Assembly: GCA_903832855.1 (NCBI GenBank)
Contig: CAILDB010000014.1
Coordinates: 64,144 to 128,143, forward strand
Length of the DNA stretch: 64,000 nt
Source of the DNA: an uncultured bacterium
GTDB taxonomy: Bacteria; Patescibacteriota; Minisyncoccia; Phycocordibacterales; GWA1-40-21
Reading direction: 5' to 3'
A program made the position numbers and the translations under genes. How positions within the stretch are numbered: the first letter of the stretch is position 1; every line of letters begins with the position of its first letter. Positions 7,539 through 45,164 of this stretch are shown here, in pieces. The notes under the pieces were generated by a model, which ran no database searches, was not told the DNA's origin, and saw only the letters and a program-made list of their open reading frames with translations.

Positions 7539-7563
7539 GTCATTCCGGCGAAGGCAGGAATCC
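7539..7563 (+). repeat. Family-1 palindromic repeat unit (GTCATTCC-N-GGAATCC hairpin), intergenic
   Basis: gtcattccggcgaaggcaggaatcc; 8-bp stem; same family as copies at 7571, 27044, 27104, 27181, 36688, 40872, 43601. Confidence 0.75.
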
Positions 7564-7570
7564 ATCTTTT

Positions 7571-7595
7571 GGATCCCGACCTGCGTCGGGATGAC
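7571..7595 (-). repeat. Family-1 palindromic repeat unit, inverted copy
   Basis: ggatcccgacctgcgtcgggatgac is the reverse complement of the 27181 copy (gtcatcccgacgcaggtcgggatcc). Confidence 0.75.
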
Positions 7596-7717
7596 AAAAA
7601 ATATAGTCATTTCATTCCTTATTTTTTTGTCAGTTATCCACAGCCCCTCTCTTTTTGCATTTGCACTCTTTTCCCTCAACATATATAATATACTCAATGA
7701 AACTAAAATTTTTTAAA

Positions 7718-7732
7718 TCTCTCTCTCTCTCT
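7718..7732 (+). repeat. (CT)7 dinucleotide tract between the signal-peptide start codon (7697) and the body of the surface-protein gene
   Basis: tctctctctctctct; ATG at 7697 is in frame 2 and the body is in frame 1; removing one CT unit fuses them. Confidence 0.7.
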
Positions 7733-7818
7733 ACTCTCTATTAACTCTTGCAATAATTACTAGCATTGTCGTCTTTGCCGGTTCTCTCACTCCCTCTGCC
7801 AATACCACTCAAGGTACA

Positions 7819-9186
7819 ATGTACACTCTCAACGACATCTACCACCTCATAGCAAACAACACCCTAGCAACCGAAGGATTAAATCATGAACTCTCCACCA
7901 CTTCTTCTCCCTCTGTACCCACCTCCCACTCTATATCTGAAATCTACGCTGCTCTAGCTAATCTCCCCACCCAAGACAAACTCAAACCAGATTCCACTTA
8001 TTTAGGTGTCTCCCAGTCAGGTTCTGCTCCCACTCCAACCACCTTTACTCCCGCATCTCTTACACCCTCAGGCTCACCTTCAATCACAGGCTATACTCTA
8101 AACGACATCTGGAACCTTGCTACTACAAGTGGCACCAGACTCACATCCCCAAGTTCTCACTCTCTTTCCACTACCTCAGCACCTACAGGTACAATGCACA
8201 CACTCAAAGAAATTTACCTTGCTTTAGTCGCATATGGAGATGCTCATAAATCTGATGTTCTAAATACCACAACTTACCTTGGAACATTAGGAACCTATGT
8301 CCCAACTCACACAGTTACTTTTGATGCTAATACGGGTACGGGGTCCATGTCTGCTCAAACAATTGCGGAAGGGGCCTCAGCTAATTTAACCTCCAACACC
8401 TTTACTAAAACAGGTAACAACTTTTCCGGTTGGGCCACAACTGCCGGCGGAGTTGTTGCTTATGCTGATGCCGCCAGCTATACCATGGGCTCATCGAATG
8501 TGACGCTGTATGCCAAGTGGGCTATAAATTACACAGTTACCTTTGATGCCAATACCGGCAGTGGTTCTATGTCTCCACAAACAATTGCGGAAGGGGCTTC
8601 AGCTAATCTGACGGCCAACACCTTTACCAAAACAGGTAACACCTTTGCGGGCTGGGCCACAACTGCCGGCGGAGATGTCGCCTATGCTGATACGGCCAGT
8701 TATACCATGGGCTCATCGAATGTGACGCTGTATGCCAAGTGGACAGCCGTAGTAGATGCTTGTGGCGTGAGTGGTGATGCAACGGATCTGGATTGTTGGT
8801 CTATGGGATCTCCGATCTCTATGGCTTGGGGGCCCAACCCATCATACCCTGGTGTTTCAACTGATATCGGTCTTTCAAACGGTAAAGCCAATACGGATGT
8901 TTTAATGGCAGCAGAATCTGCATATTCCGAGTCATATCCTGCCGCTCACTATTGCGCTACTTTAGACGATGGTACTCATCCTGTTGGTACGTGGTATCTG
9001 CCATCTTATGCTGAACTATGGGCTGGTTATGGCGCTGTCCCGGGATTTATGGGCGACGCTTATTGGTCTTCTACTGAGTGGTCACAAATGTCAGACACAT
9101 GCGCCTGGGCGTTGTACCCGGGCCTCAACGATATTTACGGCGCCAGTAAGGACACACCGCCGTACAATGTCCGTTGTCTCCGCTAG
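7819..9186 (+). CDS. Surface protein with tandem Listeria-Bacteroides (InlB B-type) repeats and C-terminal DUF1566 (Lcl-like) domain; probable true start at 7697 via CT-tract frameshift
   Basis: Two ~70-aa repeats TVTFDANTG.GSM..QTIAEGASANL...YAKW; C-terminus WYLPSYAELW...YWSST...NVRCLR; three YTLNDIY-type N-terminal repeats; GC-richer than neighbours. Confidence 0.7.
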   Translation: MYTLNDIYHLIANNTLATEGLNHELSTTSSPSVPTSHSISEIYAALANLPTQDKLKPDSTYLGVSQSGSAPTPTTFTPASLTPSGSPSITGYTLNDIWNLATTSGTRLTSPSSHSLSTTSAPTGTMHTLKEIYLALVAYGDAHKSDVLNTTTYLGTLGTYVPTHTVTFDANTGTGSMSAQTIAEGASANLTSNTFTKTGNNFSGWATTAGGVVAYADAASYTMGSSNVTLYAKWAINYTVTFDANTGSGSMSPQTIAEGASANLTANTFTKTGNTFAGWATTAGGDVAYADTASYTMGSSNVTLYAKWTAVVDACGVSGDATDLDCWSMGSPISMAWGPNPSYPGVSTDIGLSNGKANTDVLMAAESAYSESYPAAHYCATLDDGTHPVGTWYLPSYAELWAGYGAVPGFMGDAYWSSTEWSQMSDTCAWALYPGLNDIYGASKDTPPYNVRCLR

Positions 9187-9267
9187 CCCCAGTAACCAGA
9201 CAAGGACTGTCCTTGTAGATAGGGCAATAATGGGGTCAGCCACCATTTCATTAAATTATAAAAAACC

Positions 9268-9423
9268 ATGAGCACAATATCAGCACCACTACCACCTATC
9301 CTAGATGAATTTGTAAAAAGGATGGTTAAAGAAGGAAAAGCCCACAACAAAGCAGATGTTGTGCGTAAAGCTTTGGAGCTTCTGGAAGAGAAAGATAAGC
9401 AATCGGATAAGAGCAAGAATTAG
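9268..9423 (+). CDS. Small ribbon-helix-helix protein (ParD/CopG antitoxin-like), orphan
   Basis: 51-aa ORF not in the ORF track; ...VKRMVKEGKAHNKADVVRKALELLEEKDK resembles RHH antitoxins; followed by two hairpins. Confidence 0.4.
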   Translation: MSTISAPLPPILDEFVKRMVKEGKAHNKADVVRKALELLEEKDKQSDKSKN

Positions 9424-9519: not shown

Positions 9520-10362
9520 ATGGAAATAAAATATATTGATATTCACTCGCACCTTGGTTTTGAGGATTATGGCGAGGATCAAAAAGAGGTGATAAAGAGA
9601 ATGCAGGAAGCTGGGGTTGCGACTATTGTAGTGGGGGCGGATTTGGCAAGTTCAAAAGAAGCTGTGAAAGTAGCAACTGAGAATGAAAATGTTTGGGCCT
9701 GCATTGGAATGCATCCGAATCACAATGTGGTGGAAGTTTTTGATGAGAAAGAATATGAAGAACTTGTAAAAAATCCTAAAGTTGTGGCGGTGGGGGAATG
9801 TGGTTTGGATTATCATATAGCACCCGATTTGTCTTTGCGAGGTAATCCGAAGCAAACCAGACCTGATTCTCTGGATTGCTTCACTTCGTTCGCAATGACA
9901 GAGAAGAAGCAGAAGCAAAAAGATGACTTTATAAAACAAATTGAACTTGCGATAAAATACAAGAAGCCCCTTATGCTTCATATTCGTGATGCTCATGATG
10001 ACGCATATGAAATTCTTAAAAAATATGAAGGAAAAGTTTTTGGAAATTTACATTTTTTCACTTCGACATTAGAAAATGCAAATAGATTTATTGCCCTTGG
10101 ATTTACTATCTCATTTCCGGGAATTATTACCTATGTCAAGGACCTTGACACCATAGTGAAGTCAATACCCCTTGAAATGATGCACGCCGAAACTGATTCT
10201 CCATTTGCCTCTCCTGTACCATACCGTGGCAAAAGAAATGAACCGTCATATGTGATAGAAGTTTACAAAAAAATCGCTGAAATCCGTGGAGAAGATTTTG
10301 AAGTCGTTCGTCAACAATTATTAAATAATGCCCGAAGATTGTTTGATATCTCTTTTGTATAA
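9520..10362 (+). CDS. tatD: TatD family metal-dependent hydrolase, with in-frame repeat insertion
   Basis: IDIHSHLGFEDY and GECGLDYH motifs; ~25-aa insertion LSLRGNPKQTRPDSLDCFTSFAMTEKK encoded by the family-2 repeat. Confidence 0.8.
   Translation: MEIKYIDIHSHLGFEDYGEDQKEVIKRMQEAGVATIVVGADLASSKEAVKVATENENVWACIGMHPNHNVVEVFDEKEYEELVKNPKVVAVGECGLDYHIAPDLSLRGNPKQTRPDSLDCFTSFAMTEKKQKQKDDFIKQIELAIKYKKPLMLHIRDAHDDAYEILKKYEGKVFGNLHFFTSTLENANRFIALGFTISFPGIITYVKDLDTIVKSIPLEMMHAETDSPFASPVPYRGKRNEPSYVIEVYKKIAEIRGEDFEVVRQQLLNNARRLFDISFV
9831..9903 (+). repeat. Family-2 palindromic element inserted in-frame in tatD
   Basis: gtctttgcgag...gattgcttcacttcgttcgcaatgacagag; homologous to 40791-40868 and partial copy at 27227. 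Confidence 0.75.
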
Positions 10363-10383: not shown

Positions 10384-10421
10384 CCCCGTAGTAAGAAATT
10401 CTGATTTCTTTACTACTGGGG
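10384..10421 (+). terminator. CCCCGTAGTAA..TTACTACGGGG hairpin family (terminator-like) after tatD
   Basis: ccccgtagtaagaaattctgatttctttactactgggg; related copies at 41754, 55952 and split arms at 15283/15386. Confidence 0.6.
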
Positions 10422-13339: not shown

Positions 13340-13499
13340 GAAAAGACCAAAAATTTTGTTAGGGATGGCGATCCTGTTCCTTTTGAAATGCCTTGGGAGG
13401 AGTGGTCTGACGACGGACAGAGAAAATTTCTAGCAAGAAATTTTCGTGCAGTTCAAAAGGAATAGGTCGACAGGACCCCGTGAAATTTTTGGTCATTTC
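13340..13499 (+). repeat. Structured hairpin element, copy 1 (core ttccttttgaaat ... atttcaaaaggaa)
   Basis: Outer 17-bp stem gaaaagaccaaaaattt/aaatttttggtcatttc; conserved inner arms shared with the copy at 61187; variable 58-nt loop with its own hairpin. Confidence 0.6.
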
Positions 13500-15408: not shown

Positions 15409-15410
15409 GG

Positions 15411-16001: not shown

Positions 16002-16598
16002 ATGAAAAAGGAAAAAACTTTATTAATAATCAAACCGGATGGTGTAGAGAGATCTCTTATCGGCCAGATAATAAAAAGACACGAAAGGGTTGGATTGAAA
16101 CTCGTGGCGTTGAAATTTCTCGTTCCCACTGTAGAAATGATAGAGAGTCATTACACAGTAGATCCGGAATGGCTTAGGAAAGTCGGTCAAAAAACAATTG
16201 ACGGCTACAGAGCAAAAAATATTTTGCCTCCTTCGGAAGATCCTGTAGAAAACGGTAAAAATGTTTTGAGACGACTCACAAAATATATGAAAAGCGGACC
16301 GGTCGTCGCAATGGTTTGGCAGGGGGCCCACTCTGTGGGGATTGTTAGAAAAATTGTTGGTGGAACAGAACCGCTTAATTCAGATGTCGGAACTATTAGG
16401 GGAGATTTTGTTACGGACTCGTACATAATTTCTGGAGCCGATGACAGGGCGGTAAGAAATGTTGTTCATGCATCAGGTTCTGTAGAAGAAGCAGAAAAAG
16501 AAATTAAGTTATGGTTTGGTTCGAAAGAAATTTTAAATTATCGTTTGATACAAGAAGAGGTTCTATATGATGTAAATTTGGATGGAATTTTGGAATAA
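16002..16598 (+). CDS. ndk: Nucleoside diphosphate kinase (with C-terminal extension)
   Basis: LLIIKPDGVERSLIG and NVVHASGSVEEAEKEI motifs. Confidence 0.85.
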   Translation: MKKEKTLLIIKPDGVERSLIGQIIKRHERVGLKLVALKFLVPTVEMIESHYTVDPEWLRKVGQKTIDGYRAKNILPPSEDPVENGKNVLRRLTKYMKSGPVVAMVWQGAHSVGIVRKIVGGTEPLNSDVGTIRGDFVTDSYIISGADDRAVRNVVHASGSVEEAEKEIKLWFGSKEILNYRLIQEEVLYDVNLDGILE

Positions 16599-23827: not shown

Positions 23828-26800
23828 GTGAAACGCCAAAATTGTTCTTTTTATATCGCGGGCTTATTTTTTTTGTCTTTTTTTATACTTTTTTCTCCAT
23901 TAAATAATGTTTTTGCAGAAACTGAACTCCACGCTGGAGATGACGGACTTTATCATATCTCCACAGACACAACTTGGACAAAATCTGCTGGGCCTTATGT
24001 TATTTATAACGATGTATCAGTGGATAGTGGATCTATTTTGACTATTGAAGCAGGAACTGAAATTAAGCTCGCGGCTGGTGTTTACATTAATGTTCTTGGA
24101 AAATTGATTGCAAACGGGACGGAAAGTGAAAAAGTTTCTTTCACATCTTTAGATAGTGCTTTACCGTGGGGAGCGGTTTATGCCCTTAACGGAGGAAGCT
24201 ACGAAGTACACAATGCCGATGTATCTTATGCAGACAGCGCTTTTGGTGCTTATCATGGAAATGGTTCTCTAGATTCGGTTAGTGTTCATGACTGTAAGTA
24301 TGGTCTAGACATTACCGATGGTAATTTTGATGTAAAAAATAGCTCTTTTACAAATATGTCTCGTATTGTCGCGGATATTTACGACAATAGCCATCTCTCA
24401 TTCACATCTTCTAGTATAGAAAATCCGGGAAGGAGAGTATTTAGAGTAACTCACGGAAGCACATTAAATCTTTCTGATTTAAGTTTGGATGATGCTCACG
24501 GTGACCAAGTGTTTGAAGTTTACAGGGAAAGCTCTGTGAACGTTGATAATTTATCTGTCAAAAATTTTTACGGATATTCTGTCGCAGAAGTTTATCAAAA
24601 CAGTTTGATAAGTATTACAAATTCAACGATAGAAGATTCAACGACAGGATGGGGAGACGTGATTGAAATTTTTGACAGCAGTCATCTTACTCTCACGAAT
24701 TCTACGATAAAAAATACAATAGGGTGGTCTGCGATAAATGTCGGTGATTGCAGAGATAATTCTAGTTCAACTGTGGACATATCAGATTCGGTGATAGATG
24801 GGGGAACAGAAATGGGGGTGGCACTCATCTGTTCTGTGACGGCAAATATATCAAATACAAAAATTACAAATTTTTTGACTGCTGGGGTGGAATCTCTTAG
24901 TAATCCGGTTATAAGAATTTCGAATAGTGAAATTTCGGGGAATGATAGGGGAATAGAAAGTTATGGTGGGGATGTTGAGATCACAGACAGTATTATTAAA
25001 GATAATTTATCATACGGGATTTATAATTTAGCTTCGTATTATGATTCTTACTATGAGATTTGGGTAGAAAAATTGCCAATAAAAGCCGATGGAAACTGGT
25101 GGGGGGATAAGAGCGGGCCGTTTAATGCAACATTAAACGGCCCCGGCCTCGCAAACCCAGTATCTTCCAACGTTGAATTCTCCCCCTGGCTCAAAAGCGA
25201 CCCAAAAATAAAAAAGAAAAATCCCGTAATAATTATCCCTGGAATTATGGGCACACATATCTCGCAAAATTATGGCGACAACGAAGAACTTTGGCCGAAT
25301 GTTGGTAAACTCCTCGGTTCTTTTACGGATGAATTTTTGAATGATCTCTCATTCAACACTGACGGGACAGAAAACGCCGATTTCCCAATGACTATCGGGG
25401 ATATTGTGCGGAAAGTGGAGCTTGCAGGGCAGACCGTTACAGATACATTTGACGGATTGATTTCGACTTTGATTGCGGACGGATATACCGAAGGCACCGA
25501 CCTTTTTGTTTTTCCGTATGACTGGAGGAAAAGCGATTCTGATGATGCAGTACTTTTGAAAAGTAAAATTGATGAAGTACTCGCGCAGACAGGCGGAAGT
25601 AAGGTGGATATCATCGCTCACTCAATGGGAGGACTCATAGCCTCAAAATATGTTGCCGATAATACTGCAGAAAAAGTTGATAAATTAATTTTCATCGGCA
25701 CACCGCATCTTGGCGCACCGAAGGCATTTAAGGCACTGATGTATGGGGATGATATGGGGATAAAACTTGGAAGTTTGAGCTTTCTTCACCCTCCTGAATT
25801 AAAAAAGATCTCTCAAAATTTTCCTTCCGTTTTTGATTTATTACCAAGCCAAGCATATTCATACAAATATATTTACGATATGACGGCAACTACCAGCAAA
25901 TGGTTGGACTATGACGAGGTAAAAAATTTTATCATCAATCACGGCGGAAACGAATCCCTTTTTTCACAAGCAGAAAGTTTGCACGCAAGCACGGATACTT
26001 TTGATCTATCAGGAGCAGATGTCTACAACTTTTCCGGTTGTGGCACGACCAAAACTATTGGCAGTATGACCGTAAAAAAGAAAAAATCTTGGACATCTCT
26101 CGGCCAAAAGCTTGTAGATGACTATAGTATTGATTATGTAAACGGCGATGAGACAGTTCCTCTTGTCTCCGCAGTCGGCCCGTTTGGTGATCGCAATTAT
26201 TATGTAAAAGGTTTTAAACATTCAGAGCTTCCATCTGCAGACGGCGTTCCTGAAACTATTTTTTCTATTTTGTCTGGCGTCAGTGCCACTACGACATCAA
26301 ATATTTCCAAAAGTGATTTATTTTGTGACATTCCCGGACAAGTTGTCTCCACCCACAGTCCCGTCACATTGGATATTTACGATGACCTAGGCAATCACAC
26401 TGGCCCAGTGGATGGGGGAGATATTGAATATGGAATAGAGGGTGTAAGCTATGACATTGTTGGCACATCTGCTTTTGCATTTCTCCCAGAAGGCAGAAGT
26501 TACAGAATAGTCATTCACGCTACCGACATTGGTGCATATGATTTTTACATTACAAAGCTCGGCACAGGTGGAGGCACAGTGAGCGAAGCGTATTGGAATG
26601 AAATTCCTCTCACAACTTTGTCTACAAATTCAGAAATAAATATTTCTTCTACAAGCACCGAATATGTAATAGAAACAGACCAAGAGGGTGATGGAATTTT
26701 TGAATCAACAACCACTCCTTCATCTATACTTTCTGCCACAACGAGCGAGGATTTAATTTCTCCACAATCCACAAGCACTGTTTCAAATGGTATTGTTTCA

Positions 26801-27373
26801 CTTTCTGCCGTAGACGACAATTCTGGTATTCTAAAAATAGAATATTCTTTTGACGGAAATACTTGGAATTTATACACAAAACCATTTTCTGCATATGGCA
26901 AAACTGTCAGTTATTTTGCAACCGACAATGCCGGAAATATTGAATCATTTCAAACTATTACCATACCCAATTTGGAAGTTGCTATCTCATCTGGTGGAGG
27001 TGGTGGTCCAATAATTCAAATTCCTATCCCCTCTGTCCCTTCTGTCATTCCCGTGCAGACGGGAATCCAGTCTCCTTCCTCTTCATCTCCCTCTGTTCTC
27101 TCTGTCATTCCCGTGACCCACCCCGTGAAATCTGATTTGTATTTCACTGGGGACACGGGAATCCAGTCTTCCTCTTCTCTGTCATCCCGACGCAGGTCGG
27201 GATCCATCCCCTCTGTTGTTCATTCTGTCTTTGCGAGGAGCTCTGCGACGAAGCAATCTACTCCGATCCTCACCGCCTCCGTCATAGACTCCAGAATAAA
27301 TATCCCCTCAATAATCACAACCTTCTTCCACAATCTCTGGTCCCACATATTTTCATTCTTTAAACACTTGTGA
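23828..27373 (+). CDS. Large secreted protein: signal peptide, parallel beta-helix domain, LCAT-like alpha/beta-hydrolase (lipase/phospholipase), Ig-like domains, repeat-encoded C-terminal tail
   Basis: GTG start; signal peptide; hydrolase hallmarks PVIIIPGIMGT, FPYDWRKS (YDWR motif), GxSxG IIAHSMGG and FIGTPHLGAP; C-terminus read through the family-1/2 repeat array. Confidence 0.7.
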   Translation: MKRQNCSFYIAGLFFLSFFILFSPLNNVFAETELHAGDDGLYHISTDTTWTKSAGPYVIYNDVSVDSGSILTIEAGTEIKLAAGVYINVLGKLIANGTESEKVSFTSLDSALPWGAVYALNGGSYEVHNADVSYADSAFGAYHGNGSLDSVSVHDCKYGLDITDGNFDVKNSSFTNMSRIVADIYDNSHLSFTSSSIENPGRRVFRVTHGSTLNLSDLSLDDAHGDQVFEVYRESSVNVDNLSVKNFYGYSVAEVYQNSLISITNSTIEDSTTGWGDVIEIFDSSHLTLTNSTIKNTIGWSAINVGDCRDNSSSTVDISDSVIDGGTEMGVALICSVTANISNTKITNFLTAGVESLSNPVIRISNSEISGNDRGIESYGGDVEITDSIIKDNLSYGIYNLASYYDSYYEIWVEKLPIKADGNWWGDKSGPFNATLNGPGLANPVSSNVEFSPWLKSDPKIKKKNPVIIIPGIMGTHISQNYGDNEELWPNVGKLLGSFTDEFLNDLSFNTDGTENADFPMTIGDIVRKVELAGQTVTDTFDGLISTLIADGYTEGTDLFVFPYDWRKSDSDDAVLLKSKIDEVLAQTGGSKVDIIAHSMGGLIASKYVADNTAEKVDKLIFIGTPHLGAPKAFKALMYGDDMGIKLGSLSFLHPPELKKISQNFPSVFDLLPSQAYSYKYIYDMTATTSKWLDYDEVKNFIINHGGNESLFSQAESLHASTDTFDLSGADVYNFSGCGTTKTIGSMTVKKKKSWTSLGQKLVDDYSIDYVNGDETVPLVSAVGPFGDRNYYVKGFKHSELPSADGVPETIFSILSGVSATTTSNISKSDLFCDIPGQVVSTHSPVTLDIYDDLGNHTGPVDGGDIEYGIEGVSYDIVGTSAFAFLPEGRSYRIVIHATDIGAYDFYITKLGTGGGTVSEAYWNEIPLTTLSTNSEINISSTSTEYVIETDQEGDGIFESTTTPSSILSATTSEDLISPQSTSTVSNGIVSLSAVDDNSGILKIEYSFDGNTWNLYTKPFSAYGKTVSYFATDNAGNIESFQTITIPNLEVAISSGGGGGPIIQIPIPSVPSVIPVQTGIQSPSSSSPSVLSVIPVTHPVKSDLYFTGDTGIQSSSSLSSRRRSGSIPSVVHSVFARSSATKQSTPILTASVIDSRINIPSIITTFFHNLWSHIFSFFKHL
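27027..27270 (+). repeat. Tandem array of three family-1 units plus a partial family-2 unit forming the 3' end of the 23828 gene
   Basis: Units at 27044-27068, 27104-27164 (with nested ccccgtgaaat hairpin) and 27181-27205; gtctttgcgagg...gaagcaatc at 27227-27269. Confidence 0.75.
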
Positions 27374-32742: not shown

Positions 32743-32743
32743 T

Positions 32744-33532: not shown

Positions 33533-33557
33533 AAATTAATAAATAAAAAGAAATATT

Positions 33558-35371: not shown

Positions 35372-35374
35372 TTT

Positions 35375-36064: not shown

Positions 36065-36188
36065 AATAAATAATAATGCAGAAGTTGGATAGAACGAAAT
36101 ATATTAGTGGAAAAAATCTTGGCGAAAACGGGGTCAGAAAAATGGGTTCAGCCACTATTTATTTCAAAGAAAAAATAATAATTAAAAA

Positions 36189-36638
36189 ATGTCTCATCAT
36201 AACGGGAACAATCTTCCACTTATAATTGTTTTGTGCATTTTATTCCCAGGGCTTGCTATGGCTGTGGGTGCTGGCTTTATTTTTCTTTGGATACTTAAAA
36301 TACTTTTCTATGTTTTGCTTATAATTATTTATCTCATCTACACTTACTTTTGGCCAGTCCTTATAGTTGCTGTGGTTATTTTCTTTTTCTATGCTTTAAG
36401 AAAGAAGCAGATTCCAAAAACAACAGATAAAAAAAAGGATAGTAGGGAATTAATAGAGTCAGATAAATATGTGGCAGAGGACTATTCTTGGGGTGAAAAA
36501 AGTAGTGAGGATGAAGAGATTTATGATCTGATGGAAAATCATAATCTTGATCGTGATGAAGCAGAACATGTAAAAGAAATTATGGACGATGAAGGTCTTG
36601 ATGAAGATGAAGCGGTAGAATTGAAGGATGAATTATAG
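36189..36638 (+). CDS. Membrane protein with two TM helices and acidic C-terminal tail, hypothetical
   Basis: ORF plus hydrophobic segments; family-1 repeat follows the stop codon. Confidence 0.35.
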   Translation: MSHHNGNNLPLIIVLCILFPGLAMAVGAGFIFLWILKILFYVLLIIIYLIYTYFWPVLIVAVVIFFFYALRKKQIPKTTDKKKDSRELIESDKYVAEDYSWGEKSSEDEEIYDLMENHNLDRDEAEHVKEIMDDEGLDEDEAVELKDEL

Positions 36639-36687
36639 GGACGACGAGGTGGGGAGGGTTTTGGGAAAAGAGGGGAAAAGATAAGAT

Positions 36688-36714
36688 GGATTCCGTTCTT
36701 CAACGGAATGACAG
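36688..36714 (-). repeat. Family-1 palindromic repeat unit, intergenic
   Basis: ggattccgttcttcaacggaatgacag, identical to the unit inside argS. Confidence 0.75.
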
Positions 36715-36883
36715 AAAAAAGCGTGAATTTGGGCTGTTTTAAGACCAAATTCACGCTAAATCAGGTTTAAATAAGGTTTTAAATGCGGAATTGCAAGATA
36801 GTGCACTTTACTTACACTAATAGTAACTAAGTGTTAAGATAGTTACTATTGAAGTTGGTAATATTAACTAACTTACAAAAATT

Positions 36884-37174
36884 ATGGAATTAGGTAAATT
36901 TATACAACAAAATAGCGAACCAAAAGAGAAAGAAAAAATCAAAATGTTTATTTGTGGGGAATGCAAGACAGCGTCAGATGTTTGTTATGATAGTAAGGGA
37001 GGATATTGTCATGAGGATATTTACTGTTGCCAAAAATGTAAAAGTTATTTTGTTGTTGGTGCAATTTGTGACAAATGTAATAGTACGCATAGCCGATCAT
37101 ATGGGTGTAATAACTCGAAATGTGATTGTGAGGACTATCATTACAATCACGAAACAGAAGAGGTCGAAGTATAA
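36884..37174 (+). CDS. Cys-rich small protein (16 Cys in 96 aa), hypothetical
   Basis: Multiple CxxC/CC motifs; preceded by an AT-rich region with the palindrome tagtaact...agttacta. Confidence 0.4.
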   Translation: MELGKFIQQNSEPKEKEKIKMFICGECKTASDVCYDSKGGYCHEDIYCCQKCKSYFVVGAICDKCNSTHSRSYGCNNSKCDCEDYHYNHETEEVEV

Positions 37175-37420
37175 CAAAAGGATGAATAAAATTAAACAAA
37201 ATGCCACAAACAAAAAAGGGTGAAAAAATAGAGAAGGCGATGGAGAAAGAATATGGGGCAAAACGAGGGGAGAGAATTTATTATGCTTCAATAGTTAAAG
37301 GAAAGATTAAAGGAGTGGAAGGCAAGGGGGGAACTGGTAAACTAGCCAAAGCGAAAAGAACTTATAAAAAACACCATAATTAAAGGGTTTTTCGGGATTT
37401 TGTTGACAATCGCTTGACAA

Positions 37421-38509
37421 TTGAATACAGATTGGTTTACAATAGGGTTGCTTATGAAAAACAAAGAAAAAATATTAGATATAATAAGACAGCAGGGGAA
37501 GACGACTTCTTCGGAAATTACTTCAAGACTTAACATTTCTCGTCAATATGTGAATTTGGTTATTTCCGAACTTATTGCGGAGAAACAGGTCTTAAAAATT
37601 GGCGGGACCCGAAATGCTTTCTATGTGTCTCTTTTATTTGTTAAGGAACATCCAGAGATACTTCCCTCCATATTTAAAAAAACATTTAAGAATCAATTGC
37701 TTGAAGAGCACGAGGTAATAGTTGAGATTGAAGAAAAGTTTCCGCAAATCCTTAATTTACCGGAAAATGTCCGAAGTATTTTTATTTTTGCTTTTTCTGA
37801 AATGTTTAATAATGCGATTGAACACTCTCAATCAAAAAATATATCAATTGAAGTTGCTATAAGAGATGGCAAACTTTCTTTTATGGTTTTGGATTCAGGT
37901 GTTGGTGCCTTTAGAAATATTATGAAAAAGAAAGGGTTACATTCAGAAGTTGAAGCGGTCCAAGATTTATTAAAAGGAAAGACAACGACTATGCCAAAGT
38001 CACATTCTGGCGAAGGTATATTTTTTACATCAAAATCTGCCGACCTGTTTATTTTAGATAGTTTCGGATATCAATTGGCGCTGAATACAAAAGTAGAAAA
38101 TGTCGCAATTAAAAATGTATCTATTATAAAGAGAGGTACAAAAGTGATATTTGAGATTGACGCGAACTCAGAAAGGCATCTCAACCAGGTATTCAAAAAA
38201 TATACAAATCTATCCGAGGAAAGTGATTATGGTTTTGATAAAACGGAAATACGGGTAAAGCTATACACTATGGGAGGAGTTCATATATCACGCTCGCAAG
38301 CACGCAGAATCCTTTCTGGACTAGAAAAATTTAAAATTATTTTATTAGATTTTGAAAATGTTCCAGTTGTTGGGCAGGCTTTTGCCGATGAGGTATACAG
38401 AGTTTTTCATTACAAATATCCCGACATCAAAATTGAGGAGAAAAATATGTCTGAGGGAGTTCGATTTATGATAGAACGGGCAAAAAATGAGGCAAAAAAC
38501 AACAACTAG
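37421..38509 (+). CDS. wHTH regulator fused to GHKL-type ATPase (RsbW-like) and C-terminal STAS-like DUF4325
   Basis: HTH (TSSEITSRLNISRQYVNLVISEL); FSEMFNNAIEHS...VLDSGVGAF (HATPase_c N/G1 boxes); ILLDFENVPVVGQAFADEV (DUF4325). Confidence 0.5.
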   Translation: MNTDWFTIGLLMKNKEKILDIIRQQGKTTSSEITSRLNISRQYVNLVISELIAEKQVLKIGGTRNAFYVSLLFVKEHPEILPSIFKKTFKNQLLEEHEVIVEIEEKFPQILNLPENVRSIFIFAFSEMFNNAIEHSQSKNISIEVAIRDGKLSFMVLDSGVGAFRNIMKKKGLHSEVEAVQDLLKGKTTTMPKSHSGEGIFFTSKSADLFILDSFGYQLALNTKVENVAIKNVSIIKRGTKVIFEIDANSERHLNQVFKKYTNLSEESDYGFDKTEIRVKLYTMGGVHISRSQARRILSGLEKFKIILLDFENVPVVGQAFADEVYRVFHYKYPDIKIEEKNMSEGVRFMIERAKNEAKNNN

Positions 38510-38583
38510 TTCCAAAATAGAACTAGTTCAAATTTTAGTTTTGGTTCTTTGAACTATAATTCTTCTTCGTCTATAATGAATAG

Positions 38584-39846
38584 GTGAAAAAAAGTTTAAA
38601 ATCAAAACTAAAATTAAAGACGTCAAAAACAATTTTGCATATGGATGGGGATGCGTTTTTTGTGGGTGTGGAAATGGCAAAAAATCCAAAGCTTCTGGGG
38701 AAGGCGGTGGTGACAGGTGAGGAGAGGGGGATTGTGTCGGCACTTTCATATGAGGCAAAGGCGCTGGGTGTGGTTCGTGGGATGCCGATATTTCGTTTGA
38801 AAAAAGAATTTCCGAATGTGATTATCTTGCCTGGGGATTATGCTTCGTACGCGAAATATTCTGGAATGATGTTTGATATTGTTCGTAGGTATGCGGATGA
38901 TGTGGAGGAGTACAGCATTGATGAATGTTTTGCGGATCTTACTGGGCTTGAGCCACCTCTCAAGATGACTTACAAGCAAATTGCTGAGCGGATTAAAAAA
39001 GAAATAAATGATGAGCTTCATTTGTCTGTGTCTGTGGGGCTTGCACCGACGAAAGTTCTTGCAAAAGTGGCGTCAAAATGGGAGAAGCCAAATGGGATGA
39101 CGGTGATAGATAAAAAGAGTGCCCCAGATTTTCTTGACCGGACTTCGGTCGAGAAAATCTGGGGCATTGGTCCGAAGACGGCCGAGTTTTTGAAAACGCG
39201 ATTTATAAAAACCGCAGGAGATTTTGTCAGAAAAGATATTGATTGGGTGCGAAGGAACCTTTCAAAACCATATGAAATTATCTGGCGTGAGCTTCAGGGT
39301 GAGTACATTATGGAAATTGATCCTGTGCCGAAGACTATTTATTCATCAATTCAAAAAACTCGCTCATTTCATCCATCCACAAATGACAAAATTTTTCTTC
39401 TCTCTCAACTTTCCAAAAATATTGAGGAAGCCTGCAGGAAGGCGAGGCATTACAAACTTGTTCCGAAAAAAGTTTCTCTTTTCTTGAAAGACAAGGATTT
39501 TAAATTTACAAATTGTTTGATTCCACTTCCTTCACCGACAAATGCTCCGGAAATTATTATTCCTCTTGCCGAAGCGAAGTTTAAAGAAATGCATACCAAG
39601 GGAATTCTTTATCGTACTACAGGTGTGACCTTGCAAGAACTTATTTCTGACTCTGTTTCGCAAGGTGATTTGTTTGGCGGGAGTGAAAAGGCGAATAAAT
39701 TTGAAATTATTCACAAACAGATTGATTCTCTTGAAGAAAAATTTGGTAAAAGAGTGATTTATTTGGGCTCTACACACGAGGCATTAAAGAAAAAAGAAAA
39801 GGGGACAGACGCGGATGATTTGGACAGAGATTTGCTATTTCTTTAG
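38584..39846 (+). CDS. dinB: DNA polymerase IV (Y-family); GTG start, or ATG at 38641
   Basis: ILHMDGDAFFVGVEM and SIDECFADLTG catalytic motifs. Confidence 0.85.
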   Translation: MKKSLKSKLKLKTSKTILHMDGDAFFVGVEMAKNPKLLGKAVVTGEERGIVSALSYEAKALGVVRGMPIFRLKKEFPNVIILPGDYASYAKYSGMMFDIVRRYADDVEEYSIDECFADLTGLEPPLKMTYKQIAERIKKEINDELHLSVSVGLAPTKVLAKVASKWEKPNGMTVIDKKSAPDFLDRTSVEKIWGIGPKTAEFLKTRFIKTAGDFVRKDIDWVRRNLSKPYEIIWRELQGEYIMEIDPVPKTIYSSIQKTRSFHPSTNDKIFLLSQLSKNIEEACRKARHYKLVPKKVSLFLKDKDFKFTNCLIPLPSPTNAPEIIIPLAEAKFKEMHTKGILYRTTGVTLQELISDSVSQGDLFGGSEKANKFEIIHKQIDSLEEKFGKRVIYLGSTHEALKKKEKGTDADDLDRDLLFL

Positions 39847-39956
39847 TCTTAGCTTGCGGGGGCTGTTAAAAATATGTGGATATGATATAATAGTCATTAT
39901 TAGCTTATTAGTTTTAATTAAGCCAAATCCGCTATTGCGGACGGCAAAATAAAAAT

Positions 39957-40305: not shown

Positions 40306-41733
40306 ATGGTTCAAAAAGCCCCAAAATCGGTTAAAAAGCCTAAACAAGACAAAGGCCCCAAGCTGACATACGATGTGGTGGTGATAGGTGGTGGGCCTGC
40401 AGGGCTTATGTCCGCTTGCATTTCTGCTGAAAACGGAGCAAAAGTCCTTCTACTAGAGAAGAACGAAGAAATGGGTAAAAAGCTTCTAATTTCCGGTGGT
40501 GGCAGATGTAACATCACAAATGCTGATCCAGACAAAAGAAAATTTGTTTCAAAGTTTGGTAAAAAGGGTGACCTTTTATTTAGTCCTCTTTCTGTCTTTG
40601 GTGTGCAGGATACGATTCAGTTTTTTAATAATTTAGGAGTGAAAACAAAAGTTGAAGCTGGTTTTCGTGTGTTTCCTGAGAGTGATAATTCTTCTGATGT
40701 TCTTGAAGCTTTCGTGCAAAAGGCAAAAAAAGTTGGAGTGGAATTTAAAACTTCTGCGGAGGTTATGGGATTTAAGACATTGTCACTCCCGTCTTTGCGA
40801 GGGTCTTCCCGAAGCAATCCAGATTCCGATTCTTTAGATTGCTTCGCTTCACTCGCAAAGACAGAGGAGATGGATTCCGGCCTTCGCCGGAATGACAGAA
40901 AAGAGGAAGGAAACGACAGAGGGAAAATCTCTGCAGTAATTTTGAAAAATGGGGAAGAAGTAGTTGGAAAGAAATTTATTTTGGCGACTGGCGGAATGTC
41001 ACACCCAGAAACTGGCTCTACCGGTGATGGTTTCAAATGGCTTACTGAAATTGGTCACAAAGTTGCAAAACCAAATCCTTCTCTTGTGCCAATTAAAATT
41101 TCTGAGTCGTGGATTGGCGATTTTTCTGGAATTACTTTGGAAAATGTTGGAATTTCAATCTGGCAAAATGGCACGAAAAGTATAAATAAAAAAGGCAGAG
41201 TTCTTTTTACACACAACGGACTTTCCGGCCCGATGATTTTGAATATGAGCAAAGATATTGGCGACCTTTTACAATACGGCGAAGTGAAAGTCGCAATAGA
41301 TTTTTATTCCGGAGTCGGACTTGATGAAATGCACGAGAATTTCAATAAACTATTCAAAGAGCATTCAAATAAAAAAATAAAAAATCTTGTTTTGCCGGAA
41401 GTCCCAGCAAAAATATTTGAAAAAATTCTTGAACTTCTTGAAATTGACGGAGAAATAGAAATGCACTCAATTTTCAGGGAGGAAAGATTTTCTCTGATAG
41501 AAAAATTAAAAAAGTTTGAGCTCACGGTCGGCGGACTATTGGGCTTTGATAAGGCGATAATCTCAAGTGGTGGACTGGACCTTTCTGAAGTTGATTTTAA
41601 AACAATGGGTTCCAAGCTTTACAATAATTTATTTTTTGCCGGTGACATTTTGGATTTCGATAGACCTTCTGGAGGATTTTCTTTGCAGTTATGCTGGACC
41701 ACAGGTTATATTGCTGGTAAGAACATCAAATAG
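40306..41733 (+). CDS. NAD(P)/FAD-dependent oxidoreductase, HI0933/YhiN (BaiN-like) family, with ~45-aa in-frame repeat insertion
   Basis: YDVVVIGGGPAGLMSA...LISGGGRCNITN; insertion LSLPSLRGSSRSNPDSDSLDCFASLAKTEEMDSGLRRNDRKEE encoded by family-2 + family-1 repeats. Confidence 0.75.
   Translation: MVQKAPKSVKKPKQDKGPKLTYDVVVIGGGPAGLMSACISAENGAKVLLLEKNEEMGKKLLISGGGRCNITNADPDKRKFVSKFGKKGDLLFSPLSVFGVQDTIQFFNNLGVKTKVEAGFRVFPESDNSSDVLEAFVQKAKKVGVEFKTSAEVMGFKTLSLPSLRGSSRSNPDSDSLDCFASLAKTEEMDSGLRRNDRKEEGNDRGKISAVILKNGEEVVGKKFILATGGMSHPETGSTGDGFKWLTEIGHKVAKPNPSLVPIKISESWIGDFSGITLENVGISIWQNGTKSINKKGRVLFTHNGLSGPMILNMSKDIGDLLQYGEVKVAIDFYSGVGLDEMHENFNKLFKEHSNKKIKNLVLPEVPAKIFEKILELLEIDGEIEMHSIFREERFSLIEKLKKFELTVGGLLGFDKAIISSGGLDLSEVDFKTMGSKLYNNLFFAGDILDFDRPSGGFSLQLCWTTGYIAGKNIK
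40791..40868 (+). repeat. Family-2 palindromic element, in-frame in flavoprotein gene
   Basis: gtctttgcgag-ggtcttccc-gaagcaatc-cagattccgattctttag-gattgcttc-gcttcact-ctcgcaaagac-agag; nested inverted repeats. Confidence 0.8.
40872..40898 (-). repeat. Family-1 palindromic unit, in-frame in flavoprotein gene, immediately after the family-2 element
   Basis: ggattccggccttcgccggaatgacag. Confidence 0.8.
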
Positions 41734-42639: not shown

Positions 42640-42715
42640 TACCGATTGCTTCCGTGTAGTTTCAGCTTTTGCGAAACTACACGGATTTTTTTTAAAAAAT
42701 GTGGGGCAGAAAAAG

Positions 42716-42750
42716 TTTGACAAAAAATAGCCTACGGCGTATAAATAAAT
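42716..42750 (+). promoter_or_regulatory. Sigma70-like promoter (TTGACA-N17-TATAAA) for the 42798 gene
   Basis: ttgacaaaaaatagcctacggcgtataaat. Confidence 0.5.
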
Positions 42751-42797
42751 CGGAAGTTTGTTAGCTCTCTTTCATAACTGAAGCACAACGCTTCGGA

Positions 42798-43322
42798 ATG
42801 GCGGACGGCGACAATACAAAGGAAGAGGAGAAACTGACCATGAGTAAAAACATGCTCGGTGTGGCGCTCTGCGAAGTACGCGGACTGCTGAATCAGTTGA
42901 TGGAAAATCTCTGCGGTAAAGATTGGGAAAAGTGGCTTGAAGCCCTCAAAACCTTTCTTCGTGGAGAGCCGACTTTTGCTGAGGAGATGATTTATCCTCC
43001 GCTTAGGTGGAGTACCGACCTAGGGGAAATTCCTCGAGTCAATCTTTTGTCCCAAACTTCGTCATACTGTCGACAATTTGGAGAGGGATGGAGATTACCA
43101 ACAGAAAAAGAACTCGCCAGAGCCATGAAAAATACGGAGCTGGCTAATGAATTTGCTCTTTTAAAATATTATTGGACTTCAACATCTCATTCAGATGCTG
43201 ACAAAAAGATGACAGTCTTATATCGCCATCAAGACGAAGGCGTTAGTTATTCTAGAGAAGATTGGCTTGGTAATCAGAAGAATCCATATCTGCGGTTGTG
43301 TCGTACGAGGGAGTTTGCTTGA
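42798..43322 (+). CDS. Cytoplasmic DUF1566 domain protein (paralog of 41902)
   Basis: GEGWRLPTEKELARAM...YWTSTS...LRLCRTRE; shares the N-terminal LNQL..DW..WLE segment with 41902. Confidence 0.55.
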   Translation: MADGDNTKEEEKLTMSKNMLGVALCEVRGLLNQLMENLCGKDWEKWLEALKTFLRGEPTFAEEMIYPPLRWSTDLGEIPRVNLLSQTSSYCRQFGEGWRLPTEKELARAMKNTELANEFALLKYYWTSTSHSDADKKMTVLYRHQDEGVSYSREDWLGNQKNPYLRLCRTREFA

Positions 43323-43400
43323 TTGAAGAAGGGCGTCTTTTTCCCGAAGGGAAAAAGACGCCTGTTTTTTTGGGAAAAAAAATGATATTATGAATAAAAT

Positions 43401-45164
43401 ATGATAGAGAAAGTACTGGAAAATTTAATAAAAAAAGCATTGGAGTCGCTTGGAATTGAGGGAGCGGAAACTTTGAATGTGAGTTTGGAACATCCAGAGG
43501 TGATGGCTCATGGAGATTATTCTACAAATGTTGCGATGGTGCTGGCGAAAAAGATGGGGGAAAATCCGAGGGAGCTGGCGGGGAAGATTAAAGAGGAGAT
43601 GGATTCCGTTCTTCAACGGAATGACAGAGGGGAAAATATGATAGAGAAAATTGAAGTTGCAGGGCCGGGGTTTATTAATTTTTATTTAGCGAAAAAAGTT
43701 TTTGAAAATGGGGTGGGGGAGATTTTGAAGGATGGTAATCAATATGGTCGTAATAATATTTTAGATGGTCAGAGAACAATTATTGACTACACTGACCCAA
43801 ATCCGTTTAAGGATTTTCATATTGGGCACTTAATGAGTAATGCAATTGGCGAGTCACTTTCAAGAATAATGGAGGCGAACGGAGCTATCGTAAAAAGGGC
43901 CAATTATCAAGGCGATGTGGGTATTCATGTTGCTAAAGCAATCTGGGGTGCATTTAAAATGCTTAACGAGTCAGAGTGCAAGAAAGCATTTTTTGGGGGT
44001 TGGTTTGGTCTTGGAAAAAATTCAAAAATTTGGGGACAGGCGTATACTTTAGGTGCGATAGCTTTTGAAACAGATGAAAATGCAAAAAAGGAAATAACTA
44101 ATCTGAATAAGAAGATTTACGATCGTTCGGATGGAAAAATAAATAAACTTTATGATATTGGGAGAAAAACATCCCTAGAATATTTTGAAAAGATTTATAA
44201 AATTCTTGGCACAAAATTTGACTACTATTTTTTTGAAAGCGAAGTGGATGATTTAGGGAAGGCGATTGTGCTTGAGGCTATGGCGAAGGGTTATTTTGAA
44301 AAAAGCGATGGGGCGGTAATTTTCCGAGGGGAGAAATATGATCCGCTTTTGCATACTCGGGTTTTTATTAGTTCCCAGGGATTACCAACATATGAGGCAA
44401 AAGAAATTGGTTTAACAAAAGAAAAATATCGCCGATTTGCTTTTGATAAAACAATTGCTGTTACAGGAAACGAAATTAACGATTATTACAGAGTAGTCAA
44501 AAAAGCGATGGAATTTACTATACCTGATTTGGCTTCTAAAGTGGTGCATATTGGTCATGGAATGTTGCGACTACCTTCTGGTAAAATGTCATCTCGAACA
44601 GGACAGGTAATTACGGGTGAGTCATTGCTTACCGAAATACAAAAAAATATTTTGGAAAAAATGAGAGATCGAATGATGTCAAAAAAAGAAAAAACGCAAA
44701 TAGCAGAAATCGTGGCGGTGGGAGCATTGAAATATTCCATTTTGAAACAAGCTGCCGGTGGGGATATTATTTTTGATTTTGACAAGTCAATTTCTTTTGA
44801 GGGGGATTCTGGACCATATTTGCAATATTCATATGTTCGTGCAAAATCTGTTTTGGAAAAAGCAAAAGATGAAAATGTAAAAGCAAAAATAAACAAAGGT
44901 GATTCTGACGGAAGTGTTTTGGAAAAAATGCTTTTGAGATTTACGGAAGTGGTGGAAAGGGCGGGAAGGGAATACTCGCCACATTATCTTGCGATTTATC
45001 TGACTGAACTTGCATCTGCATTCAGCACTTTTTATGCAGAAGGAAAAATTGTGGACAAAACCGACGCAAAATCTCCTTACAAAATTGCTCTTACGCAAGC
45101 TTTTTCTGTCGTGATGAAAAGCGGATTGAATCTTTTGGGGATAAAGGTGCCCGAAAAAATGTAG
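43401..45164 (+). CDS. argS: Arginyl-tRNA synthetase (with 9-aa in-frame repeat insertion)
   Basis: FHIGHLMSNAIGESL (HIGH) and GKMSSRTG (KMSK-like); AGPGFINFYL; insertion MDSVLQRND from the family-1 unit. Confidence 0.9.
   Translation: MIEKVLENLIKKALESLGIEGAETLNVSLEHPEVMAHGDYSTNVAMVLAKKMGENPRELAGKIKEEMDSVLQRNDRGENMIEKIEVAGPGFINFYLAKKVFENGVGEILKDGNQYGRNNILDGQRTIIDYTDPNPFKDFHIGHLMSNAIGESLSRIMEANGAIVKRANYQGDVGIHVAKAIWGAFKMLNESECKKAFFGGWFGLGKNSKIWGQAYTLGAIAFETDENAKKEITNLNKKIYDRSDGKINKLYDIGRKTSLEYFEKIYKILGTKFDYYFFESEVDDLGKAIVLEAMAKGYFEKSDGAVIFRGEKYDPLLHTRVFISSQGLPTYEAKEIGLTKEKYRRFAFDKTIAVTGNEINDYYRVVKKAMEFTIPDLASKVVHIGHGMLRLPSGKMSSRTGQVITGESLLTEIQKNILEKMRDRMMSKKEKTQIAEIVAVGALKYSILKQAAGGDIIFDFDKSISFEGDSGPYLQYSYVRAKSVLEKAKDENVKAKINKGDSDGSVLEKMLLRFTEVVERAGREYSPHYLAIYLTELASAFSTFYAEGKIVDKTDAKSPYKIALTQAFSVVMKSGLNLLGIKVPEKM
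43601..43627 (-). repeat. Family-1 palindromic unit in-frame in argS
   Basis: ggattccgttcttcaacggaatgacag. Confidence 0.8.

Follow-up and report, generated by a model that had tools for sequence, protein, structure and literature searches.

How do short DNA palindromes come to sit, without breaking the reading frame, inside the housekeeping genes of a bacterium of the candidate phyla radiation (CPR)? The question is raised by a 64,000-nucleotide stretch of an uncultured member of the Patescibacteriota (contig CAILDB010000014.1 of GenBank assembly GCA_903832855.1, positions 64,144 to 128,143 of the forward strand; GC content 38 %), referred to here, at its full length of 64 kb, as the window. 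The source names of its best TatD and ArgRS homologues, together with its GC content, place it in a Patescibacterium of the Paceibacteria/Minisyncoccia type. Two palindromic repeat families, A and B, recur in it, some copies between genes and others inside the genes for TatD, arginyl-tRNA synthetase (ArgRS), an HI0933-like flavoprotein and a large surface protein. Selfish palindromes inside genes are known mainly from Rickettsia. Here, family A probably represents hairpins of the type acted on by Ssn nucleases, which would spread selfishly and be tolerated in frame in the coding loops of Paceibacteria.

Family A and the NTS/dRS3/SRM hairpins

A regular-expression search of the window (GTCAT[TC]CC..GG[GA]ATCCA) finds exactly eight family A copies, and these are the eight positions listed in the first-pass annotation of this DNA. 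Four lie on the forward strand (7539, 27044, 27104 and 27181) and four on the reverse strand (7570, 36687, 40871 and 43600), against a mean of 0.005 copies and a maximum of one in first-order Markov simulations of the window. The unit is 26 nt long: GTCAT is followed by a stem of 8 bp, a G-rich loop of 4 nt (GAAG or GCAG), the returning stem and CCA. Every one of the eight forms a hairpin on folding (z-scores of -3 to -5 relative to shuffles), and their stems vary yet always pair (GGC/GCC, CGT/ACG, GTT/AAC, CGAC/GTCG). The repeat is oriented, with GTC before the palindrome and C after it in 8/8 copies, and the flanks (5' TCT, 3' TCTCCTCT) are conserved as well. The annotation had written its consensus with a central '-N-'. 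This stands if the N is taken as a variable core of ~10 nt with the flanks included, but as a single nucleotide it gives zero matches.

The unit closely resembles a repeat known from Neisseria. There, dRS3 forms the core of the 28-nt NTS, with the consensus CGTCATTCCCGCGMAVGCGGGAATCYRG (Chenal et al. 2025, Nat Commun 16:2388, PMC11893778). SsnA, a single-domain GIY-YIG nuclease of 94 aa, binds NTS in the form of single-stranded DNA (ssDNA) only and cuts a few bases upstream of it; the bases upstream of the palindrome and the C that follows it are critical for cleavage and binding (PMC11893778). Hairpins of the Ssn-related motif (SRM) flank ssn homologues in many phyla, and the arrangement NTS-ssnA-NTS resembles an insertion sequence (IS; PMC11893778). 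Positions 27043-27070 of the window (TGTCATTCCCGTGCAGACGGGAATCCAG) are identical to the NTS consensus at 25/28 positions, and two of the three mismatches form a compensatory pair. The strict SRM pattern, HGTCWYN(0-2)YYVSBRHN(0-5)WNVSBRGN(0-2)RNCYNB, fits 27043-27070 and 40870-40897, i.e., 2/8 copies, where 0.06 would be expected. Judged by sequence, fold and orientation, family A belongs to the NTS/SRM class. The likeness covers the sequence itself (GTCATTCC-stem-loop-stem-GGAATCC[A/G]), the oriented hairpin, the many dispersed copies, their inverted pairing and clustering, and the hairpin-ssn-hairpin unit, which we recovered in other phyla.

This places the repeats well outside the CPR. We scanned one genome per species with the motif GTCATTCC-N8-12-GGAATCCA and obtained at least 160 family A copies in at least 120 loci. 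Among the matches listed, the hosts are Bacteroidota, Alpha-, Beta-, Gamma- and Deltaproteobacteria, Chloroflexota, Nitrospirota, Planctomycetota, Spirochaetota, Zixibacteria, Vampirovibrionales, Campylobacterota and at least three Patescibacteria, and they include isolates such as Povalibacter uvarum and Bradyrhizobium. Nearly all of these listed copies are perfect hairpins, with the consensus GTCATTCCCGCGAA[A/G]GCGGGAATCCA[G/T]. Their inner three stem pairs are Watson-Crick in 127/135 copies, compared to 63 with shuffled partners, and at least five stem variants occur. A scan of metagenomes with lineage-type flanks contributed 120 further loci. Over all loci together, 67/95 adjacent hairpin pairs are arranged '+ then -', with the CCA ends facing and spacers of 3-89 nt. 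The idea that the two families are peculiar to CPR genomes therefore fails, as A occurs across many phyla and has already been described as dRS3/NTS/SRM, and B occurs in an alphaproteobacterium. The associated statement that nothing of this kind had been described for CPR genomes is borne out by our literature searches, which gave no paper linking palindromic repeats with CPR or Patescibacteria. Searches with family B sequence strings returned only unrelated papers, and no follow-up to the Ssn paper was found. Patescibacteria go without mention in the main article that describes the NTS (PMC11893778, its supplementary tables apart).

Some of the hairpins elsewhere come with their putative enzyme. 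GIY-YIG ORFs (open reading frames) are present in four metagenome loci and two genome loci; three of five Ssn-type ORFs were checked against Pfam, and all three are PF01541. In four loci (L063, L145, L163 and L186) a gene for a GIY-YIG protein of 94-104 aa is bracketed by a + and a - hairpin, each a few bases away, and counting these, such a gene stands next to hairpins in five loci. The Ssn-type proteins of L145, L163, L186, L063, L252 and L320 are 58-67 % identical to one another on contigs with GC contents of 35-62 %. These Ssn-type proteins are mostly on very short contigs, as expected of a multi-copy element that breaks assemblies. Relative to the protein of L145, database homologues that come from named Omnitrophota, Ignavibacteriaceae, Latescibacterota, Phycisphaerae and Bacteroidales (P0391-P0510) show 63-79 % identity. 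At least 8000 candidates were scored in the Ssn profile search, all of which pass E <= 0.001. Viral contigs carry hairpins too (at least 143 copies, with perfect stems in 135/143) and at least two ssn genes. The presence of ssn and hairpins in viral contigs, together with their high conservation, fits wide horizontal spread. Given that hairpin-ssn-hairpin units exist, the gene-less doublets of the window (7539/7570 and the B elements) look like their miniature derivatives.

In-frame copies in host proteins

Five of the eight A copies, and every B copy, lie within ORFs that are left unbroken. Family A is stop-free in 4-5 of the six reading frames, and its single always-closed frame includes the TGA of GGAATGAC. 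The five coding A copies use three distinct reading frames, so no particular peptide appears to be selected. The intergenic copies comprise an inverted '+ then -' doublet with a 5-nt spacer, formed by GTCATTCCGGCGAAGGCAGGAATCCA at 7539..7564 (+), which lies just 3' of a terminator-like hairpin (7497-7527), and the ATCCCGAC stem variant at 7570..7595 (-). The third intergenic copy, at 36687..36712 (-), lies 49 nt past the stop codon of the ORF at 36189-36638, inside a 12-kb variable defence island.

Family B is built in a similar way. Its sequence GTCTTTGCGAG occurs four times in the window, where 0.84 occurrences are expected, and the layout is GTCTTTGCGAG...GAAGCAATC...GATTGCTTC...CTCGCAAAGAC. 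What had been annotated as a 75-nt element at 9831 and 40791, with a partial copy at 27227, is confirmed as two full palindromes of 72-73 nt and a left half. Folding energies of the full copies are -18 kcal/mol (9831-9903) and about -31 kcal/mol (40791-40862). Each half ends like A (GTC[A/T]T...AATCCA) and has the stem ATTGC/GCAAT, for which reason B is an inverted doublet of a sister hairpin. Family B is, in other words, a doublet of a GTCAT-type hairpin related to A, parallel to the A doublet 7539/7570, and it presumably has a cognate nuclease of its own. The B doublet is also found in Roseiarcus (L018), the alphaproteobacterium mentioned above, and in a Patescibacteria genome (L065).

In tatD (9520..10362, +; PF01026 family), a 73-nt B palindrome made of two GTC[A/T]TTGCGA..GAAGCAA[A/T]CCA half-units (9831..9903) is read in frame as SLRGNPKQTRPDSLDCFTSFAMTE, following the motif GECGLDYH. 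The protein has 280 aa compared to 254 aa in empty forms, a difference of 26 residues at the site. Among 120 homologues the commonest form is the one of 254 aa, which has GECGLEYYKLTGDIEEIKKKQK there, and in the syntenic relative L245 the site is empty at the DNA level. The gene for the HI0933-like flavoprotein (40306..41733, +) carries a B palindrome (40791..40862, read as SLRGSSRSNPDSDSLDCFASLAKT) that is directly abutted by an A hairpin (40871..40896, -, read as EEMDSGLRRNDR); both are in frame, and the A hairpin, taken with its flanks, is one of the two copies that fit the strict SRM pattern. Nearly all of the best 150 representatives of this protein match in two stretches that break at residues 157-205. 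The ~45 extra residues are absent from an alignment of 60 homologues, including one that is 71 % identical, and are common only to the syntenic relative L121, where the insert is shorter.

The insert in argS (43401..45164, +) is a single A hairpin (43600..43625, -; read in frame as EEMDSVLQRNDRG), the core of which is identical to that of the intergenic copy at 36687. It adds 8-9 residues to a loop of the N-terminal domain before IEKIEVAGPGFINF, six residues ahead of AGPGFINF. Most homologues read ..AEI-NKN-LPKE-IEKVEVAGPGF at this place and the window reads EEMDSVLQRNDRGENM.

The fourth host is a 1181-aa beta-helix/LCAT-lipase surface protein (23828..27373, +), in which an array is made up of three A copies, a single nested palindrome and one half of a B. 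The A copy at 27044..27069 (+) is read as SVIPVQTGIQ and, with its flanks (27043-27070), fits the strict SRM pattern. It is followed by a copy with an interrupted loop (27104..27165, +), within which a different, 'family C'-like palindrome of 32 nt is nested (27121..27152, +; CCCCGTGAAA..TTTCACTGGGG), and by a copy of the ATCCCGAC variant seen at 7570 (27181..27206, +), read in another frame as LSSRRRSGSIP. Last comes the left half-unit of B alone (27227..27262, +; GTCTTTGCGAGGAGCTCTGCGACGAAGCAATCTA), in frame as SVFARSSATKQS and, lacking its partner arm, without a stable fold. The first-pass annotation correctly described this array as in-frame but took it for the tail of the protein. It is instead a linker ahead of the native hydrophobic C-terminus, whose 24 residues are conserved in an orthologue that has a Ser/Thr/Asn-rich linker at the position of the array.

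Comparison with orthologues confirms that the tatD, argS and flavoprotein segments are inserted in frame, and as the extra segments are missing from close orthologues they are lineage-specific. Ancestral protein sequence as their origin was rejected on the same alignments. In AlphaFold models derived from these alignments the mean predicted local distance difference test (pLDDT) score is 85.7 for TatD and 91.2 for the flavoprotein, and it falls below 50 only at the inserts, i.e., at residues 104-121 of TatD, following the strand 88-91, and at residues 165-194 of the flavoprotein, between beta-strands 153-159 and 206-213, which form a hairpin in the protein. Both are thus predicted to be disordered loops in otherwise confident folds. 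Aligned with the solved structure 6ao8, the ArgRS insert falls in a gap of 8 residues. The coding copies are secondary, lineage-specific in-frame insertions located in loops.

Occupied and empty alleles, which the annotation had proposed to look for, exist at high identity in ArgRS. The sequences P0151 and P0163 are occupied (LDSRLRGNDR), and P0167, P0175 and P0178 are empty and 96-97 % identical outside the site. P0141 (occupied) and P0162 (empty) are 93 % identical, and P0136 (occupied) and P0131 (empty) are 88 % identical. The nearest relative of the window ArgRS, P0121, is 75 % identical and empty. An assembly artefact was rejected as the source of the inserts: the elements are shorter than reads, the frame is kept, and the same insertions occur in independent ENA and JGI assemblies (L121, L122).

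The same two loops are occupied by other repeats in other lineages. At least 4-5 unrelated hairpin families have taken the TatD loop after GECGLDY and the ArgRS N-domain loop, and repeat-derived peptides in other Paceibacteria include NKGLSSRSEAGRGESLVE, PKSKVESEKLKV, TFLHSQECEN and CPAVNNSDCS in TatD, and ACPVVNNSDYSTTGV and LRQAQDD in ArgRS. One such insert from another family is confirmed as a strong DNA hairpin (L246, -16 kcal/mol). In the TatD homologue P0004, an A unit is nested in the middle of a B.

Mobility, tolerance and competing accounts

So, how might hairpins become peptides? Under the reading that we favour, small single-domain GIY-YIG nucleases (the Ssn family, cd10448) would bind hairpins extruded as ssDNA and cut a few bases upstream of them, and the hairpins would proliferate as non-coding, selfish passengers. 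Two facing hairpins enclose the nuclease gene in other phyla, as an IS-like unit of ~350 bp, from which the common '+ then -' doublets without a gene would derive. By inserting into or next to one another, the hairpins would generate arrays and nested copies, and they would spread within genomes and, via phages and transformation, between genomes. In a compact, coding-dense CPR genome many landings would strike genes. The copies that survive would be those that keep the frame, are read in a stop-free frame and fall in a surface loop or linker able to tolerate 9-45 extra disordered residues. The outcome would be lineage-specific in-frame insertions of the kind seen in TatD, ArgRS, the flavoprotein and the surface protein. 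An Ssn-type nuclease, encoded elsewhere in the genome or acting in the past, would be what recognises and mobilises the window copies. The inserts are presumably translated, and predicted peptides spanning their junctions include KIKEEMDSVLQR and DYHIAPDLSLR.

Several observations weigh against this reading, first among them those on the partner enzyme. Neither a GIY-YIG/Ssn ORF nor a transposase was found in the 64-kb window by regular expressions, phmmer (seeded with a YhbQ sequence), hmmsearch --max with hidden Markov models built from the loci hits, or a Pfam scan of 30 ORFs. The same is true of ~130 kb of relatives' loci (L121, L123, L124, L245-L247, L052, L065, L067 and L106), which amount to a fraction of any genome, and Patescibacteria are not among the named proteins of the 120 best Ssn homologues in the profile search. 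It is NTS sequence identity, and not a local partner gene, that links the window copies to an Ssn enzyme. Ssn nucleases, those of Neisseria included, are not known to transpose anything. In addition, the six A copies other than those at 27043-27070 and 40870-40897 depart from the strict SRM pattern at inner stem positions, as their stems hold T/A pairs that the pattern disallows; they still share GTCAT, the AT[TC]CC...GG[GA]AT palindrome and the following C.

The alleles are a second difficulty. Those of ArgRS differ by replacement, 42 nt in the occupied L121 versus 24 nt in the empty L124, and those of TatD also show replacement, from ~33 nt to ~100 nt (DNA-level allele comparisons used L121, L123 and L124). 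As this is replacement instead of clean insertion, the chemistry of insertion cannot be read from the sequence. Target-site duplications are not seen in the ArgRS and TatD alleles, whose protein identities of 60-93 % leave room for a short one to have eroded. Within one clade, the occupied ArgRS alleles have flanking substitutions in common (LAG.., ..ISK), a pattern that fits homologous recombination of one haplotype as well as repeated insertion, and exchange of alleles through recombination may therefore account for some of the patchiness.

A third point is that the hairpins of low-GC metagenome loci are depleted in long ORFs, at 13 % versus 59 % of random positions (stop-to-stop ORFs were counted, and only in low-GC loci, since spurious long ORFs are common at high GC). 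In-frame metagenome cases recognised by eye are a phosphoglucomutase-like ORF (L196) and a YchF-like ORF (L170). In N. meningitidis only 2 % of NTS are within genes (PMC11893778), and with the metagenome depletion this means that the coding bias of the window, where 5/8 A copies and all B copies are in frame in ORFs, is not a general property of the family. The window differs from the Neisseria system in other ways as well: an ssn gene was not found in it or in the sampled portions of relatives' genomes, several of its copies have A/T-containing stems outside the published pattern, and the Ssn paper contains no description of family B, with its 73-nt doublet and ATTGC stem.

Some of these observations lend themselves to an alternative in which the elements are no longer mobile. 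The insertions would be old, their patchiness would come from allele exchange and occasional deletion, and their recurrence in the same loops would mark nothing but survivable sites. The linked substitutions on both sides of the hairpin in the ArgRS clade of P0141, P0151 and P0163 are as this predicts, the flavoprotein and ArgRS copies of the window agree in site and orientation with those of the syntenic L121 even at a protein identity of only ~60 %, and no mobilising gene was found. We nonetheless regard it as unlikely. The core of the ArgRS copy at 43600 is identical to that of the intergenic copy at 36687, 7 kb away, where old independent copies would have drifted, and stems are perfect yet different between genomes. 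Moreover, a different ArgRS clade has an occupied member, P0136, in which the linked substitutions are missing; in other lineages the same loops have been taken by unrelated hairpin families, and nested copies imply successive events.

The first-pass annotation had drawn a different comparison, to Rickettsia palindromic elements (RPEs). These are ~100-150 bp long and lie in frame in unrelated housekeeping genes, at fold-compatible positions (PMC10969869). The behaviour is indeed RPE-like: in-frame palindromes occupy loops of unrelated housekeeping genes and are absent from orthologues, the inserted peptides stand at fold-compatible positions, copies are polymorphic and nested, and no transposase is encoded in the element. 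The elements are not members of the RPE families, however. RPEs are Rickettsia-specific families, each with a conserved peptide, whereas the elements here are 26-73 nt long, occur in many phyla and are read in several frames; being far shorter and pan-bacterial, they are RPE-like in function but set apart from RPEs by description. A link between RPEs and SRMs is possible, as Rickettsia is among the genomes with >300 SRMs (PMC11893778). A version of the comparison in which the window holds two CPR-specific, RPE-like miniature mobile families, unrelated to known repeats and moved by an unknown transposase, strikes us as improbable. It would draw on the in-frame copies in loops of unrelated housekeeping genes, as in RPEs (PMC10969869), and on the failure to find a cognate enzyme locally, but both families occur far outside the CPR, family A matches the NTS consensus at 25/28 positions, and the elements fall well short of RPE length (PMC10969869).

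It is quite improbable, in our view, that the repeats are elements of the REP (repetitive extragenic palindrome) or REPIN type, mobilised by a RAYT or an IS200/IS605-type Y1 (HUH) transposase that acts on ssDNA hairpins. The resemblance is real, in that these too are short hairpins, mostly in inverted doublets (67/95 pairs) and BIME-like clusters, with an enzyme acting on ssDNA hairpins encoded between two repeats, and the layout is shared by 7539/7570 and both full B copies. The Ssn paper itself draws the REP analogy (PMC11893778). However, the gene adjoining the hairpins in five loci, and lying between them in four, encodes a GIY-YIG nuclease instead of a Y1 transposase. The hairpins carry the 5' tag GTCAT, where REP tags are reportedly GTAG or CGTC, and REPs are by definition extragenic. 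No transposase domain, PF01797 included, was met in the Pfam scan of 30 window ORFs, although no systematic PF01797 search was made. The miniature inverted-repeat transposable elements known as MITEs are likewise small, non-autonomous and palindromic, but a single A unit is far shorter than any MITE, and target-site duplications are not visible. We know of no IS terminal repeats that match these elements. Bacterial MITEs such as Correia, ERIC, Nezha and others resemble the present elements in that they occasionally form in-frame fusions to host ORFs (PMC10969869).

It is very improbable that the hairpins are retained for a role of their own rather than being selfish, whether at the DNA or RNA level (transcription termination or attenuation, stabilisation of mRNA, control of incoming ssDNA during transformation as in Neisseria) or as a flexible protein linker. 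In favour of such a role, the stems covary and stay perfect even in coding DNA, intergenic copies lie just 3' of genes, SsnA/NTS modulates transformation in Neisseria (PMC11893778) and the surface-protein array replaces a low-complexity linker. Against it, strains that are nearly identical fare well when the ArgRS copy is missing, the family shows no conservation of position, intrinsic terminators have a T-run that the hairpins lack while real terminator-like hairpins adjoin them, and the use of three reading frames means that no single peptide is selected.

A bolder version of the Ssn-type reading would make Ssn-type and other palindromic families a general and still active source of loop insertions in Patescibacteria, with coding stems kept for a role at the DNA level. 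We offer this tentatively and consider it rather doubtful. If perfect coding stems are maintained through compensatory changes, they would mean a DNA-level role beyond tolerance, and a candidate is the marking or processing of ssDNA during uptake and recombination, in which the hairpins may take part. Patescibacteria cells are thought to depend on DNA scavenging.

The NTS hairpin and its nuclease were described in 2025 as an intergenic, transformation-tuning system, and here the same pan-bacterial hairpin acts in an RPE-like manner in a CPR genome. What looks new is the colonisation of coding sequence by Ssn-type hairpins, an essential synthetase included, recurrently in the same loops and in a phylum without an earlier report. 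If general, the process would explain many odd lineage-specific insertions and peptides of CPR proteins, e.g., 'MDSRLRGND', 'VIPAKAGIQ' and 'SLRG..KQS..LDCFASLAMT', and would be a warning for the annotation and phylogenomics of CPR genomes. Occupied and empty alleles that are nearly identical would provide natural material on how Ssn-associated hairpins move, and the extreme conservation of a 26-nt hairpin and of a ~95-aa nuclease, put at 65-79 % identity over contigs of 35-62 % GC with viral ones among them, would point to very wide horizontal spread.

Other palindromes and variable regions of the window

A third palindrome family, 'C' (CCCGTAGTAAGAAATTCTGATTTCTTTACTACTGGG), occurs at 10385-10420, just 3' of tatD, and at 55953-55988, just 3' of ssb. 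As a peptide (CPVVNNSDYSTTG) it occurs as an insert in the TatD and ArgRS proteins of other Paceibacteria. In locus L041 (6500-7100), CCCGTAG...CGGG palindromes resembling C flank a YhbQ-type GIY-YIG gene, an arrangement that hints at different hairpin families pairing with different GIY-YIG nucleases. The low-GC metagenome contigs L152, L194 and L204 combine an A hairpin with B-like half-units, read as SLRGLFPFCHSRESGNPSS[I/L]S[F/L]RG; these hairpins lie directly upstream, or within the leader, of a large protein with the type IV pilin N-terminal motif GFSLIELMVA.

An element of ~140 nt is present in two copies, at 13350-13489 (+), just upstream of a FolD-like gene, and at 61203-61341 (-), upstream of ftsK. 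Its ends are conserved and can pair (AAAATTTTGYTAGGGRTGGCGATCCTGTTCCTTTTGAAAT ... TTCAAAAGGAATAGGTCGACAGGACCCCGTGAAATTTT), and the ~55-nt centre is unrelated between the copies. The copy upstream of ftsK is bracketed by a perfect 27-nt inverted repeat (61183-61209 / 61335-61361). The element has no Rfam match and contains no tRNA; it could be a structured RNA or another mobile element. In the syntenic L245, a family B doublet takes up the corresponding intergenic slot. At gathering thresholds Rfam gives no match anywhere in the window, so none of the window repeats is a curated RNA family. tRNA fragments were excluded as a source of the palindromic elements.

Two regions of the window vary between relatives. 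The 12-kb block at 27400-39900 is absent from the syntenic L121, where the genes for the surface protein and a SWIB protein are ~1 kb apart. It encodes an AbiEii toxin, an EcoRI-type methylase with its likely nuclease partner, a GmrSD/HNH nuclease, a HATPase/DUF4325 protein and a DinB-type polymerase. This is a defence and variable island, and it contains the A copy at 36687. The region between a MetRS-like gene and tatD (6660-9420) holds a gene for a Bro-N domain protein, the A doublet, a gene for a 455-aa protein and a small ORF; L245 has a glycosyltransferase in their place. The 455-aa protein has two Listeria-Bacteroides repeat domains, encoded by a 222-nt tandem duplication (8304-8742). 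The region is the second variable spot that hairpins mark.

Further insertions may be present in two other proteins of the window. The nucleoside diphosphate kinase (16002-16598) has 198 aa and matches its Pfam model in two stretches, and ribosomal protein S6 (54915-55457) has 180 aa; both are long, and both may carry lineage-specific insertions.

Stems of other kinds are also overrepresented. Over the whole window, 22 hairpins with a stem of at least 9 bp are observed, versus 0-6 in simulations. Inside the gene for the DinB-type polymerase, a perfect 15-bp inverted repeat with a 17-nt loop (39120-39166) has a right arm that encodes the conserved EKIWGIG helix-hairpin-helix motif and a left arm (APDFL) that is its reverse complement. 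Stems as long as this one are very unlikely to arise by chance. A similar palindrome of 13 bp, read as GPFNATLNGP, lies in the surface-protein gene at 25115-25143.

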